The position numbers and the translations under genes are program-made. A DNA stretch of 63,512 nucleotides, the filler included. It is 12 parts of 12 records of this genome, joined end to end, with 100 filler letters (N's around TTAATTAATTAA, not from the genome) between each part and the next. Parts side by side here need not be neighbours in the genome. Positions count along the whole stretch, not along the records: positions 41,373 to 47,835 come from SRR7504441_6574; 11 more parts are not named here. The stretch is one strand, 5' to 3'. Position 1 is the stretch's first letter, and each line of letters begins with the position of its first letter. This document shows positions 21,011 through 47,835 of this stretch, one piece after another. Below the pieces are notes generated by a model. It did no database searches. It was not told where the DNA came from and worked only from the letters and a program-made list of their open reading frames with translations.

Positions 21011-27647
<6,637 letters not shown>

Positions 27648-27998
27648 NNNNNNNNNNNNNNNNNNNNNNNNNNNNNNNNNNNNNNNNNNNNTTAATTAAT
27701 TAANNNNNNNNNNNNNNNNNNNNNNNNNNNNNNNNNNNNNNNNNNNNGCTCAGGAGGTTACAGGATCGTGGGATGTTCGAAGCGGTCTCTGCACCCTGGA
27801 AGCCGACCGAGATCAGATGGATCGAGATATAGATTCGGAGCCTAAACGTAACATGCGGTGTTGACTCGTAGTACGTACTCAATAGTCAATAAGCAACATT
27901 TATTGCATCGCAAGTTAACCAGTAACGGCATGCGCTCCAGTGCTGTATCGAAACTACTACGCTAGTGACTACTACAGTATTAAAACTAGATTTCATTG

Positions 27999-40971: not shown

Positions 40972-41372
40972 GATTAGCTTATGAGCTGACTGTGTAGATC
41001 TACACAGTCGTACGTATACGAGTACTACATAGCTACGATAGCTACCGGTACGTAATGTGTGTAGTAATGCGTCGATTCCTCAGGAATCGGGGTATTTAGA
41101 GTAACCAACATTTAGTCCCACGGAGGTCGTTTGGGCGCTTAAAACCTATGCGCGATAGCTCGGAAGCGCACCGGCACTACCTCGCACGGAACTCCTCGGT
41201 GTCGATCAGGTGAAAAGGAATGTTGGCGGGTCGAGGGACTGCTCATCAACCACATCCACCACACCGCCCGACNNNNNNNNNNNNNNNNNNNNNNNNNNNN
41301 NNNNNNNNNNNNNNNNTTAATTAATTAANNNNNNNNNNNNNNNNNNNNNNNNNNNNNNNNNNNNNNNNNNNN

Positions 41373-44300
41373 GCTCAGATTCGCCACGTCCGCCATCCGA
41401 ACTTAGCCGCAGAACCCTGCCCAAGGCTGCGACCAGGGTCCTCCCAGAAACGGCACAACTGCAACAACGGACAGACTGAAGCCTCTGTGGAGGGCACCGA
41501 GACGGACTGCCCAAGGCGACAGGGCACCGAGGTGGAGGCGCGTCCAGTCAAAAAGCAGAGGACACGGTTGGCAGAGGCCCCGATGGAGGTGCCCGGCCGG
41601 CCTGCCGCTCGGCCTGACCTGCCCGGGTGCCAGCCGCGCGCCGTGGCGGGTGCCAGCCCACAGTGCCCCAAGGCACGGCCGGTGTTGTGCTACGTCGGCG
41701 CCAAGGGCGAGCGGCAGATCGGGTCGGGCCGGCGGTTCGACTTCACGACAGTGATGACCGCGGTGCAGGATGCGGTGCAGTTGGAGTTTATCGTAAAGGT
41801 GATCGACGTTGACGACGTGGCCCGTCTCTTCGGCGGGGAGGCCAGCCCGGAAAAAGACCAGTGGCACACCGAGATTCAGAACTGTGACGTGCTGGTGTAC
41901 GACACCACCAGCGTGCACACCCAGTGCTGCCACCCGGCCCCGCCCATGTCACTGGCTTACTACATCGGGCTGCGCACCCCCAAACGGGACGACGACCATC
42001 AGTTGCGGGGCACGCGAGAGTTTCCCATCCCTTACCGGCTGTTCGGCCAGCTCTTCCGGCCGGTGCTCGAGAAGCACGACAGCGTTCCAGACGAGTTCAC
42101 TCAGTCGCTCGACCTTTTCGAGAAGTGGGCGCCGGTCACTGTTTTAAAGTACAGCGGAGACGACTCGCGCTGGCGGATCTGCAACGTGACGACGGCCGAC
42201 GCCGACTGCTGGAACATCCAGGACAGCGACCTGCGGGCCAACTACACGCTGCAGGAGCAGGCCAGGATAGGGGAGGCGGTGCTGTGCGCTGCAGACAGGG
42301 GCGCTTCGCTCAAGGAGCTGCTGAGGGAGTTCTTCCAGGGCGAGGAGCAACTAATGGGCGAGATCAACTGGGCAGACTTCCAGCTCTGCCTCAAGTTCGA
42401 GCGCGAGCGGGCCGCGGTCCAGACCGACTGGATCGTGGCCAAGCCGCGGAACATAGTGGCTGCGATCCCGATCACCCAGACCTTGCTCTCAGAGAGGACT
42501 AAGGCGCTCTGCGAGCCAGGCAGGGATGGGGCCGGGCTGGGGGCTGATGGGGGGGGCAGGGGCGCAGCACATTCCGGCGGCCCGGCGGCTGCACTGGAAC
42601 AATGTGCCGCTGACCAAGGCAAATGTCTACTACAGGCAGGAGACCTGGGGTGGGGAGGGCGCGCAGCCGTTCAGAGTGGGCGACTTTGTGGTGGCGGATG
42701 TGCTGATGAAAGACCCCGAGACCGGTGCCTGGCCGGAAGGGGTGGCGGTGCCGCACGATCTGACCAAGATTGATGAGAATTTTGCCTGGAAGCGGCTGCG
42801 GAAGGCCGAGGGAGGCAACAGGATCACCAGGACCATGAGCGACTCGGTCTTCTCTCGAACGTACCGCAACCTGCGATCCGGTGCCGGCCGCTCAGGCTGG
42901 ACTGACCCGCGCTGCAGGGGCGCTCGCGCTGACTAAAGCTTCGTCGCTAAACAATTTCGATAAAGACCAGGCAGCGCTGGTGAGCGTGCGGCTGCCGGGT
43001 GCAAAGCGAGCTAGGCAGGACAGGTGCGGACATACAGCGGGCTGCCAGATCTGCTCACCTCGACCGAGGAGGAGCCCACCCCGCGCCATCTGACCCGGGC
43101 CGCGTCAGTCGAGGAGGAGCAGAACGAGCAACAGAGTAAGCGGGTGCAGATCGCGCTGCAAGGGGCAGAGGAGGGCGAACAGATGCGTGCACACCCGCTC
43201 GCAAGCTATGCGCGCGAACTGATCCAGTATAGTCTGGGAGACACGCTGTCGCCCCAAAGAGGGCTGTCTCCGGAAGGTGTTGAGGCTCTGCAGAAGGCGC
43301 TTGAGCCGCTGCGGGAGGATGCGGAGAACATGGACGGCATGGTGGCGCTGAGGGAGATGTACAAGACCAAGATCCAGTCGGCCAGTCGGGCGCACGACGC
43401 CAAGAGCGAGCTGGATCGGTTGAGGGACGAGATCCTGAAGGAGACGTACAACGATCGAGCTCTCGTGCTGCATCTGATCAAGGCGTACCGAGAGGTGAAG
43501 GCGCCAGGGGGGGATGAGGAGGCAGTGAAGCTTATGGAAGCCTCGGCCAAGCTGCAGGACGTGGGGCTCGGAGACCATCGGGTGCAGATCCTGGTGGAGG
43601 GTGCCCAAGCACTCAAAAAGCTGGGGACGGATGCTGCCAAGAGCGATCTGCCTAAGGCAATAGAGTATTTGCAGCAGGCCACCAAGATTCTGGATGGCTG
43701 TGTGGAGCTCGTGCCGAATGATGAGACATTCGGAGTGCTGGGTGGGATCCACAAGAAGCTCAAGGGACTTTTTGAGAAGAAAGGGGATAAGATCAGCACT
43801 CAGACCCACTTCCTACGAGCGAGCGACTCGTATCGGAAGGGCGCCCGGGTAGATCCTGAGAAGTACTACTGTGGCATCAACTGGGCGATGCTGCTGCGCG
43901 AGCAGATTCAGGCGGAGGAGAACAGTCACATGAAGGAGACGCTCCAGGTCAGGTTTGACGACTTGATTCCAAGGCTGTGTGTGGCACTGGGCAAGTGTGC
44001 AGCGTTGGAGCCGACTCTGCACCACTCTAAGCTGATGGAAGAGTACTGGCAGGTGGCTACAGCAGTCGAATTGGCGGCGCAGACCCAGGAATGGGCAATG
44101 GGGAAGTCAGCGATGATGGTGTTATTAAAAGTGGTGCGCGAAATGCCAGTGAATGACTCGTGGATGATCAGCTCCACCTTTGAGCAGCTGCCCAATGTGT
44201 TAAGCGACCTGCAGAAAGATGAGATCCAGGTGGACGCCGTGTTCAGGTGGTGGGTGGACTTTTACTGTCAGATTTTCGATCAGAACCTCACGGAGAGGAA

Positions 44301-47249
44301 GAAGTTCCACGTGCTGCATGACGACACCAAGGCGCCTGCGATCCTGGAGATCGGAGACAACACGTTTGAGCATTCTCGGGTGTCGCTCTCTGGGGAAGAG
44401 GGGGACGCAGAAATATCTAGGGTCCAATTGCTGGTGCTCGGGGCGCTGGAAACAAAGAAGGATGATGCGAGGTGGCTGCGGATCAACTATATGGTGGGTG
44501 ATAACAAGCCCATCTCTGTCCTGTTCCCGAATGAAGCGCTGCGGATCCACTTCAGCAACAACCTGTCGAACGCTAAGGGCAAGCATCGAAGTCGCATGAT
44601 GTGCCGCGAATCCGAGAATTACTCGCATATCGACGAAGTCGACCATGCGGATCCTGGGCAACAGGGTGCAGAAGGCGCACCTTCAGTCGAGATAGACGAG
44701 CACGACCTGTCTCTGCGGAACAGGCAGAGGAAGGTGCTCGGGATGGGAACTTTCGCAAGCGTCTACCAGGCGACCAACAAAATAACGGGAAAACAGATCG
44801 CTGTGAAGGTGATGGACGCGAAGAAACTACTTAACATGTCGAATGAAGATGGCATTCGCTATGATCACTTGTTCCAAGAGATTCGAACCATGTCACAGCT
44901 GCAGCACAAGAACATTGTGCGTTACCTTGGTTGTCAGAAGGGCAAGAAGGCAACGGACTTCTACATATTCATGGAACACATGGTTGGGGGGTCTCTAAAG
45001 GATCTGCTGCAGAATAAGGGCGCGCTAGACGACAAGCTCATCGCTCGCTACACACACGACATGCTGCAGGCAATGTCGTACCTCCATTCTAACTCAATCA
45101 CTCACCGAGACATCAAAGCAGCCAATGTGCTGTTGGATGAGAACCTGACTACAGCCAAACTGGCCGACTTCGGGACTTCTCTGATCTGTGACCAGAAGCA
45201 AGGCGGTGATGATCAAATTGGAGGCAAAACTGGGGGGCTTCAGGGGTTCACACCTGCTTATGCTGCTCCTGAGGCTGTGCGTGGAGAGTGGAGTGTGGAG
45301 TCTCAGTGTGCAAACGCTGTCGACGTCTGGGCTTTAGGATGCACAGTGATTACGATGGTGACCAGCACAAGGGGCGAGGTAGCGGCAGATGCCTGGCAGC
45401 ACGCAGGTTGGTCTAGCATCAGTAAAATAGCCCACTGACCATTACGATACAGGTGATCAGATGCCAATTCATAAGGATTCGGATGACAACATGCTACAGG
45501 GGCAGCATCTGCACAAGGCAGAGGGCGAGCGTTGCTGGGTCTGCGCTCTGCAGCAAGCTCGACCACCAATGCTTCCACAGCACATGTCTCCGAGCTGCCA
45601 GGCATTCTGTGAACTATGTTTTGCACAAGATCCAGCCAAGCGGGCTAATGTTCACCGGCTGATCGACTCAATATACATTAGTACTGGTGGAGGAGTGCTC
45701 GTGCACGAGGTCCTGCGCCTTTCCATCCTCCTAGCACGGAGCCTGAGTCTCCTTGGGGCAGGGGCAAGACCAGGTCAAGCCGAACGAGGTTGGTCTGGTG
45801 AACATAAAGGGGAACTGGCATTGCGACGGACTGCTGGTGGCTGAGATCTGCGATAAGCTGCAGGAGAATCGTCTATTGAAGTCGTCGAGCGCATTCATGA
45901 TCTATTCACAGGCTGTCATCACTCGTAATGTGAAACGGCTCATAGAAAGCCTCCAGCACTCGCGATGCCAACATATATTGTTCAACATGGAGAGCAATCC
46001 ATCAGAGGATGTGCTCAAACACTTGGCTTTTCTGGGCGTTCACGTCAACCTGTCGAGAGGTAAGCATGTAAAGCTGGCACAGCAAGATGGGTTCGTACAG
46101 GTCAGCGCCTCTAGTAAACAGATGAGAAACGATGTTAATTTGTTGTTCGACAGAGTTATTGTGTTGTCGACGGCACAGCTCGCCTGTCGATGAATAAGCT
46201 TCAGGCTGCCCTGGCAGAGCATATGACGTTTAAGGTGCAAAATCTGGCCATTACTGAGCACTTGACCTGTCGAATCTGGCAGATTCATTCGAACCTCGAT
46301 TTAAAGAACCTGAAAGAGGCTATCGAAGCCAACGAGACGCGTTATGAAGCCAAGCTGCTCGTACCAGTCGAAAAGTGGAGACCGCTGGTGGAGGAAGCTC
46401 GAGCAAGTGGGCTGTTCAAGGTGAATTGCCGCACAAAACCCTCGGCCATGCCCAAAGCTTAGCCCTCGGGTCGGTTGCAGGTCACTGGACTGCACTGCCA
46501 CGTGGAGGACCCCGAGGAAGCTTTGGTCACACTCCAGAGCGAGCTGGCAGCAGTGAAGGAGGAGCTAAACCAGGACGCACCTCTCAGTGTCTGCCTGCGA
46601 GGCCTGGACGAGCACAACTGGAACAAACCGCTGTACAGCAGACTGGTGTACGAGATGGGCCAGATTTCGCACCCGATCCTAGAGGTGCTGCCACTCGCAT
46701 ATTGCTGCGGCTGAGGTGTCTGATGGGTGTGCAGATCTCACAGGATCTGTTGGAGGACGCTGCTCTTTTGATAGATCGTGTACTGCAAGTGCAGGGCTCA
46801 GCTGTTATCGTGCAGGCAAGCCAGACGCGGGCTGGGGCTAACAGTGTGAGCAGGAAGGGATGATGCATCCTGAGATGAAAGTCTGGCCATTATTTGACCC
46901 AGCTCACGTTAAGGCTGAGTCGTGTGCTGCTGAAGATGCGGACCTCGAAGAGCTGGAGGTGGAGGTGTACAGTCATCCTTCGGTGCATCATCAACAGCTG
47001 ACTATTTGCAAAAACTTTGTGAGAATGCCACACGAGGGCGACTACTTGGCATTCTATGAGCATTATCTAGCCACCTCGCAGTACATGCCTCTGTCCTCGA
47101 AGTTCCGGCAGTTCATGGTTAATGAGAACACCAAGGCTGTCGAGAAGATGCTGCCAACAAACATCGAGATGCGGCAGCCATCATCCTGGTTCCTGCGTGA
47201 TAGCGACGACCTGAGAACTTCCGGTGGTCTAAGATCTTCTGGTCGATAG
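41373..47249 (+). CDS. ASK1-like MAP3K (deoxyribohydrolase-like N-domain, TPR, PH, STE kinase) fused to a degenerate Orn/DAP/Arg decarboxylase fold; 5' possibly truncated
   Basis: CDVLVYD..SLAYYIGLR; YCGINWA; EYWQVAT; WWVDFY; VLGMGTFASVY, HRDIKAANVLL, ADFG, APE; introns 42520-42559, 42881-42917, ~42980-43023, 45407-45452, 45710-45761, 46101-46153, 46421-46480, 46685-46734, 46816-46853 give one frame. Confidence 0.85.
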
Positions 47250-47432
47250 AAGACCATGGTATAAGATCGTCACTATCGCATGGTGATACTCGTGCCTCAA
47301 CGGTGAGACCAACGATACTCGTACCTAAGCTCAATAATTACAATTATATCTAGGCATTCAAAATTACAACAAAAAGATAACTTAACGAATAAAACAGAAG
47401 TTGTAACAGGTTGTTATTGCGCCATAGGGGGT

Positions 47433-47835
47433 CTAAGAAGGAGTTACAAATTTCTCAATTAAGAAGATTCGCCTATGCGTCCTTGACACCATGCCCATAG
47501 TCGAAGGTCCTGCGCAACACATTAAATCAGCTCCCCAGCACAGGCTGCAAACTAGGATGCAGATCGCGCACCTCTTGGCATCGCTAAATCTGGCTGGCGT
47601 TAAGGTTTGCCCCGAGATATCCACAAACGCCGCCATCGCTCCGAATGCAAGCCCAGCTCCAATCCCTCGCATAGGTTTGAGAGCTGCCAGCCCAGAGCAT
47701 CAGAACCAGGGCCCGTCTCGAGCCGCTAGACAGCCGGCTAAAACGCCACAGAAGCGCACAGCCGCATACGACAGCCACTACAGGCCCTCGCCACTAGGTC
47801 GACAAGTTCAGGCGCGGTGGGTGGGGGGGGGGGGG
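47433..47835 (-). CDS. Tim17/Tim22/NDUFA11-like membrane protein, 3' fragment
   Basis: Gly/Ala-rich TM segments (GIGAGLAFGAMAAFVD); 5' truncated. Confidence 0.35.

Follow-up and report, generated by a model that had tools for sequence, protein, structure and literature searches.

The window analysed here is a stretch of eukaryotic DNA of 63,512 nucleotides (filler included), with a G+C fraction near 0.6, in which positions 41,373-47,835 come from the record SRR7504441_6574. On the + strand of this part lies a gene which, with high confidence, encodes an ASK-type MAP3K, then a short linker and then a whole domain of the fold-type III decarboxylase kind, whose ancestor is diaminopimelate decarboxylase (DAPDC, LysA).

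Gene model and RNA evidence

From 41325 to 47249 on the + strand, open frames delimited by stops overlap in a chain, and the removal of nine introns of 37-60 nt each (seven GT-AG, two GC-AG) leaves one frame from the ATG at 41583 to the stop at 47247-47249, with 5247 nt, 1748 aa and a sole, terminal stop. The junctions were chosen by homology guidance, scoring against a full-length relative (P0001, described below), after brute-force enumeration of introns had proved uninformative. The features of the gene are as follows.

41583-47249, + strand: coding span, with 10 exons and 1748 aa (nine introns) or 11 exons and 1732 aa (tenth removed)
41679-42880, + strand: conserved N-terminal region, exons 1-2, containing SLAYYIGLR; about 57% identity to P0001 aa 13-281
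42520-42559, + strand: intron 1, 40 nt, GC-AG; required by the frame, homology picks up on both sides
42881-42917, + strand: intron 2, 37 nt, GT-AG; frame and homology over the junction
42980-43023, + strand: intron 3, 44 nt, GT-AG; frame and homology over the junction
43285-44262, + strand: ASK-type central regulatory region (MAP3K_TRAF_bd / TPR-S); PF13281 and PF20308
44728-45676, + strand: protein kinase domain, split by intron 4; Pkinase E 4.1e-47
45407-45452, + strand: intron 4, 46 nt, GT-AG; top-scoring junction against P0001, and frame
45710-45761, + strand: intron 5, 52 nt, GT-AG, phase 0, separating the last exon of the kinase from the first decarboxylase-like one; RNA contig X3
45795-47138, + strand: DAPDC-like putative pseudoenzyme domain, exons 6-10/11; family profile, phmmer and Foldseek
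45990-45992, + strand: GAG (Glu) at the column of the pyridoxal phosphate (PLP)-binding lysine; NMESN aligned with AIKAN/AVKAN of lysine-bearing matches
46101-46153, + strand: intron 6, 53 nt, GT-AG; loose end of RNA contig X1
46235-46282, + strand: probable tenth intron, 48 nt, GT-AG; the 16 encoded residues are missing from 5/5 homologs compared
46421-46480, + strand: intron 7, 60 nt, GT-AG; top-scoring junction against P0001, and frame
46685-46734, + strand: intron 8, 50 nt, GT-AG; top-scoring junction against P0001, and frame
46816-46853, + strand: intron 9, 38 nt, GC-AG; homology continuous over the junction, VQ/EG in both the window protein and P0001

The first-pass annotation of this DNA, made from the letters alone, had also removed nine introns to obtain one frame. 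The frame with its single final stop stands, and what appears to have been overlooked is a tenth, in-frame intron of 48 nt. Since the segment 46235-46282 is a multiple of three and free of stops, its retention adds 16 residues and leaves the frame intact. Its removal raises the alignment score by 18-25 points against each of the five homologs compared, and makes the alignment with P0074 seamless; P0074 and the window protein share 66% identity (545/826 columns). The gene thus probably has ten introns and encodes a protein of 1732 aa. At the other end, an N gap at 41273-41373, in which the linker TTAATTAATTAA with stops in all six frames lies between two N runs, is found 210 nt 5' of the ATG. 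The coding frame is open from this gap to the ATG at 41583, so that the true start is uncertain, and the 5' end of the gene may be incomplete in the assembly.

Is this one gene, or a kinase gene and a decarboxylase-like gene that lie side by side and were merged by the gene model? Part of the stretch is contained in 12 of the 13 public runs listed, with small shares each. Four marine or seawater metatranscriptome runs from four studies supplied RNA of organisms of the same kind as that of the window, and each of these runs yielded contigs of 95% likeness or more. A contig of X3 matches 45481-45707 and 45760-45800; the 52 nt that it leaves out, with GT..AG ends, are the in-frame intron 45710-45761. 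An X1 contig stops at 46100 with a loose end of 13 letters, with which the exon at 46154 begins, giving the intron 46101-46153, and the X1 contig that starts at 46850 is compatible with both the spliced and the unspliced form of intron 46816-46853. Two of the junctions from 45407-45452 to 46816-46853, for which RNA confirmation had been proposed, are therefore seen in contigs, that between kinase and decarboxylase-like part included. The contigs do not point to transcripts that end near 45440-45850, which would have separated the two parts.

The kinase and the decarboxylase-like part are one gene and not two, because an RNA contig bridges the junction and eight relatives carry both parts in one open reading frame (ORF). 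The contigs cover 45472-46143 and 46816-47300, and further 5' only 44800-44967; the gaps at 44968-45471 and 46144-46815 (the latter includes 46235-46282) are uninformative. That none spans the whole gene, that 46144-46815 stays uncovered and that transcript ends cannot be read from contigs leave some room for two adjacent genes. Against this stand the in-frame joining of both parts by a spliced contig, the stop-free frame, which requires no ATG-led restart, and the single ORFs with kinase sequence and domain in P0001, P0030, P0033, P0036, P0051, P0058, P0065 and P0074, several of them from transcript assemblies. A two-gene artefact is thus extremely improbable, and the fused gene claimed in the first-pass annotation is upheld.

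Domains of the encoded protein

The full-length relative P0001 is an ORF of 1753 aa, labelled 'complete', in a transcriptome assembly of EukProt; with the large exon as query it scores E 2.6e-227 at 51% identity and 100% query cover. It is the one true full-length relative among the 29 matches at E<=1e-3 that this search gave among longer proteins, with 7998 candidates scored. A tblastn comparison of P0001 with the window gives seven colinear pieces, the first starting with aa 13 at 41679 and the last ending with aa 1679 at 47171; the kinase and all of the C-terminal region lie within this span. In a global alignment, the window model and P0001 are colinear throughout and 52% identical (861/1657 columns), with 39% identity (168/428) in the C-terminal part.

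Both the regulatory region and the kinase merit the term ASK-type, because the former has the Pfam matches and the latter has ASK1 as its top kinase among PDB sequences. On the large exon, the matches to MAP3K_TRAF_bd (PF13281, E 7.1e-10, 38.9 bits against a cut-off of 24.1) and TPR-S (PF20308, E 2.5e-11, 44.5 bits against 27.6) exceed their thresholds. P0001 likewise carries both, and its precomputed domains are the kinase, PF13281 and PF20308 only. The catalytic motifs IAVK, HRDIK, DFG and APE are visible in the translated kinase. With the first kinase exon alone, MAP3K2 comes first among solved structures (1.7e-31) and ASK1 next (2.6e-26). With a profile that holds the whole kinase of the relative, ASK1/MAP3K5 accounts for 12 of the 12 PDB sequences that reach E<=1e-28, and the kinase tail within the family profile also has ASK1 as its first match. 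The TPR region and the intact kinase of the first-pass annotation are thus borne out. As in animal ASK1/MAP3K5 (and ASK2/3), a MAP3K_TRAF_bd/TPR region lies upstream of the kinase, and the order of long N-terminal region, regulatory region and kinase is that of ASK1, the nearest kinase among solved structures.

Two further domains that had been read into the upstream part, an ASK1-type N-domain and a PH domain, were not recovered. The N-terminal region matches no Pfam family (at E<=1 for the window exon, at E<=10 for the N-terminal region of P0001) and no PDB sequence at E<=1, in a set that includes an ASK1 chain of 896 residues. A word-based search for its relatives returned P0001 alone among 4142 candidates, the ESM Atlas gave no usable match, and the AlphaFold2 model of the window's N-terminal exon, built on an alignment of two sequences, is unusable with a predicted local distance difference test score (pLDDT) of 46. 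Pfam, the one test applied to the PH domain, gives no PH-type family at E<=1 on the exon; the gap of about 150 residues between the Pfam matches of the regulatory region and the kinase would offer room for one. The thioredoxin-binding N-domain and the PH domain of ASK1 are thus unrecognised in the window protein by Pfam, the N-domain also by PDB sequence search. Pfam scans of the exon and of P0001 contain no SAM family either, and the C-terminus past the kinase is occupied by the DAPDC-like domain. According to an excerpt of PMC10972558, human ASK1 has a coiled coil plus SAM domain at its C-terminus, whereas the window protein ends in the DAPDC-like domain of about 400 aa.

The C-terminal domain is a fold-type III decarboxylase fold derived from DAPDC and not from ornithine decarboxylase (ODC). 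The family hidden Markov model covers aa 1332-1712 of the window model, and a linker of about 15-20 residues separates the domain from the kinase. A phmmer search of PDB sequences with the C-terminal part of P0001 gives five matches at E<=10, four of which are DAPDCs (Arabidopsis 6n2a at 1.3e-8 and 6n2f at 1.8e-8; 4xg1 and 3n2b near 2.5e-4), the fifth being weak and unrelated. A profile made from the kinase-linked family and the window exons, with true decarboxylases excluded, finds Arabidopsis DAPDC at 9e-18 and 1.3e-17 and bacterial DAPDCs at 2.5e-8 to 1.8e-6, but lysine/ornithine decarboxylase only at 2.8e-3. At the level of structure, an AlphaFold2 model of P0001 aa 1280-1700 was computed from 24 alignment rows, which included the window exons and some lysine-bearing DAPDC-like matches. 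It has a mean pLDDT of 76.6 and a predicted template-modelling score of 0.76, with 188 residues at 90 or above, and it shows an alternating strand-helix barrel, where most 10-residue blocks of residues 11-280 reach a pLDDT of 86-96. Foldseek against the PDB places Arabidopsis DAPDC in the top four ranks (E 3.9e-18 to 1.3e-17, TM 0.62-0.66, about 400 aligned columns), followed by D-ornithine/D-lysine decarboxylase and other DAPDCs.

The likeness of the tail to fold-type III decarboxylases, first noticed from the letters alone, is therefore supported by structure, sequence and profile searches alike (best values 3.9e-18, 1.3e-8 and 9e-18, respectively), and the peptide strings then quoted from the C-terminal part are all found in the translation. 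The double label of ornithine/DAP-decarboxylase holds at the level of the superfamily; by ancestry the domain belongs with DAPDC (9e-18) rather than ODC (2.8e-3 for lysine/ornithine decarboxylase). The Pfam families that had been expected did not appear: PF02784 stays below its cut-off of 23.4 bits in the P0001 part (19.2 bits, E 8.6e-4), P0030 (18.2 bits) and P0074 (22.7 bits), PF00278 is undetected in Pfam scans of the P0001 part and the fused relatives, and no decarboxylase family of Pfam is found on the window's single exons. As the domain lies under the Pfam cut-offs, the architecture is invisible to routine annotation.

Loss of the active site and spread of the fusion

With DAPDC/LysA (Arabidopsis 6n2a/6n2f), the window domain shares the fold and a clear sequence homology that includes the N-terminal strand. 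It differs in being fused to a kinase, in falling below the Pfam cut-offs and in lacking what the enzyme needs to hold PLP. The replacement of the PLP lysine by Glu, reported in the first-pass annotation, is found at the codon 45990-45992. No lysine occupies this column in any of the 20 kinase-linked family sequences (1 E, which is the window, 6 G, 12 N and 1 V), although these 20 include 90%-cluster mates and many are near-duplicates, so that the number of independent lineages is nearer six. Among the other matches, lysine is present in 13 of 14. The columns of GGG (the phosphate-binding loop), HxGS and EPGR, the PLP-site motifs of the decarboxylases, read RGL, HV-ED and EISQ in the window and are degenerate in the relatives too: no family sequence that covers the columns in question retains the GGG loop or the Arg of EPGR, and in the MAFFT alignment six of six fused members lack the Gly-Ser of HxGS. 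Even so, relatives that are just 27-60% identical retain the fold. With the lysine and further PLP-site motifs lost, the domain should be catalytically dead, in line with the inactivity proposed earlier, and judged by these residues it is very likely incapable of PLP chemistry.

Alternatively, the domain could still be an enzyme that works through another lysine or without PLP. The subgroup of P0033, P0035 and P0036 does have a lysine two residues past the canonical column (PLNAKHS). The window protein, P0001, P0030 and P0074 have no lysine at that shifted position, GGG, the Gly-Ser of HxGS and the Arg of EPGR are lost, and PF02784 is under its cut-off in every fused protein where it is seen at all (18.2, 19.2 and 22.7 against 23.4 bits). 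Retained catalysis is therefore very improbable.

How widespread is the fusion? An exhaustive HMMER search with the P0001 part against 1.84 billion representatives returned only 26 proteins at E<=1e-3. By alignment, 12 of them are family-type, 13 are lysine-bearing and DAPDC-like, and one is a stand-alone protein with Gln at the lysine column. Nine proteins were scanned with Pfam, and Pkinase lies upstream of the domain in seven (P0030, P0033, P0036, P0051, P0058, P0065 and P0074); P0035 begins within the kinase tail and P0042 is stand-alone. P0030 is a transcript of Telonema subtile, in the naming of one source, and the other Pkinase-positive relatives scanned come from environmental assemblies. 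The order of kinase and then decarboxylase-like domain thus exists elsewhere, in the complete ORF of P0001 and in the seven Pkinase-bearing relatives. No complete stand-alone member of the family type could be demonstrated, the short ones being fragments. A profile search confined to proteins of 1785-5000 aa found no longer fused relatives, which says little.

Three of the proteins met in these searches deserve mention on their own. P0042 is a stand-alone DAPDC-like protein of 480 aa from the hemichordate Glandiceps talaboti (uncharacterized at NCBI), with PF02784 at 1e-38 and PF00278 at 3e-21; with Gln in the column of the PLP lysine, it makes a second dead relative of LysA that looks independent of the first. 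P0039 and P0040 contain three or four tandem copies of an N-terminal LysA segment with the lysine motif, and seem to be artefacts of assembly or annotation, not relatives of the fusion.

Elsewhere in the window, a single open frame of nearly 2000 codons at 21726-27695 on the + strand carries DUF913 (E 1e-50), UBA and PUB matches and ends in a long poly-Asp run followed by an N gap. It encodes the N-terminal portion of an E3 ubiquitin ligase of HUWE1/UPL type. A tblastn match of P0001 at 26049-26270 (E 0.004) falls within this frame and was dismissed as chance, since none of six other queries matches there. The six open frames scanned in the neighbourhood of the kinase gene contain no Pfam family.

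Possible roles of the C-terminal domain

What could a dead decarboxylase do behind a stress kinase? Two known systems offer partial parallels. The antizyme inhibitors AZIN1/2 are paralogs of ODC, free-standing proteins that bind antizyme. They share with the window domain a fold-type III decarboxylase fold without PLP catalysis, and the regulatory use to which AZIN puts this fold may apply to the window domain as well. Unlike AZIN1/2, the window domain is of DAPDC ancestry and part of a kinase, and the DAPDC rather than ODC ancestry makes the analogy with antizyme inhibitor weak. Neither this analogy nor the idea of polyamine or antizyme sensing, both put forward in the first-pass annotation, receives specific support, given values of 9e-18 for DAPDC against 2.8e-3 for lysine/ornithine decarboxylase. 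The second parallel is GCN2, likewise a stress kinase with a dead metabolic-enzyme domain C-terminal to the kinase, although it belongs to another kinase family, uses another enzyme fold and has a domain whose ligand is known.

Fold-type III decarboxylases are obligate dimers. On this ground, and because the SAM domain drives oligomerisation of ASK kinases (bioRxiv 10.1101/693663), the reading preferred here, at a rough probability of 0.45, is that the domain may be a non-catalytic dimerisation or regulatory module. It would act as a structural element in place of the coiled coil and SAM domain with which animal ASK kinases end. Tethered close behind the kinase, it would hold two kinase domains together and thereby allow trans-autophosphorylation, possibly in a regulated manner. 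The output would be a MAPK cascade, as is assumed from the kinase family.

Several points weigh against dimerisation as the role of the domain. In real decarboxylases, the C-terminal sheet contributes to the dimer contact, and this is the weakest part here: it is the poorest in AlphaFold2 confidence, with pLDDT below 50 at model residues 314-344 and 370-421, and the least conserved, with large insertions in the P0033 group. The predicted structure is that of the relative P0001 and not of the window's own protein, and the fold result is partly non-independent, because the alignment given to AlphaFold2 held lysine-bearing DAPDC-like sequences. Moreover, the kinase and PH parts of ASK1 dimerise by themselves, according to an excerpt of PMC10972558, so that an extra dimeriser is perhaps superfluous.

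The main rival, which is possible but rather unlikely, is a metabolite sensor: the dead DAPDC domain would bind a small ligand, for which meso-diaminopimelate, lysine, D-amino acids and polyamines are candidates, and switch the kinase allosterically. The model for such a role is again GCN2, whose HisRS-like pseudoenzyme domain senses uncharged tRNA. The barrel is well conserved and confidently modelled (pLDDT 86-96 in most blocks of residues 11-280), motifs common to real DAPDCs are kept (the xYS strand, the CxxDG/NG turn and GxHC), and the family has been maintained for long, with members 27-60% identical. Yet the PLP site is destroyed, while the real enzyme holds its substrate through PLP, and the residues that replace the lysine vary by subgroup (E, G, N, V), unlike what one conserved ligand site would lead one to expect. 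Sensing and dimerisation may also be combined, as a dimerisation controlled by a ligand.

A more specific version, more doubtful still, is that in a marine protist feeding on bacteria the LysA-derived pseudoenzyme might serve as a receptor in the cytosol for meso-diaminopimelate or lysine. If so, the receptor would couple peptidoglycan breakdown products or lysine status directly to a MAPK cascade. A single protein that arose outside animals would then match the NOD1-to-MAP3K route or GCN2-type sensing in function.

Whichever role applies, a new pseudoenzyme module is here part of a multidomain MAP3K, and among fold-type III pseudoenzymes this module is of another kind than antizyme inhibitor. 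A DAPDC-MAP3K architecture or a DAPDC-derived pseudoenzyme was not found in the literature as far as it is reflected in titles and the opening lines of abstracts, outside subscription journals and supplements, and within this scope the architecture is without precedent, as had been supposed. ASK kinases are central stress sensors, and the C-terminal control of their oligomerisation and activation is an active question. In a protist lineage that includes Telonema, the C-terminal part of an ASK kinase has been swapped for a whole dead metabolic enzyme, and the exchange has been kept over deep divergence. This natural fusion allows two modes of action of the tail, dimerisation and ligand sensing, to be tested directly against each other.

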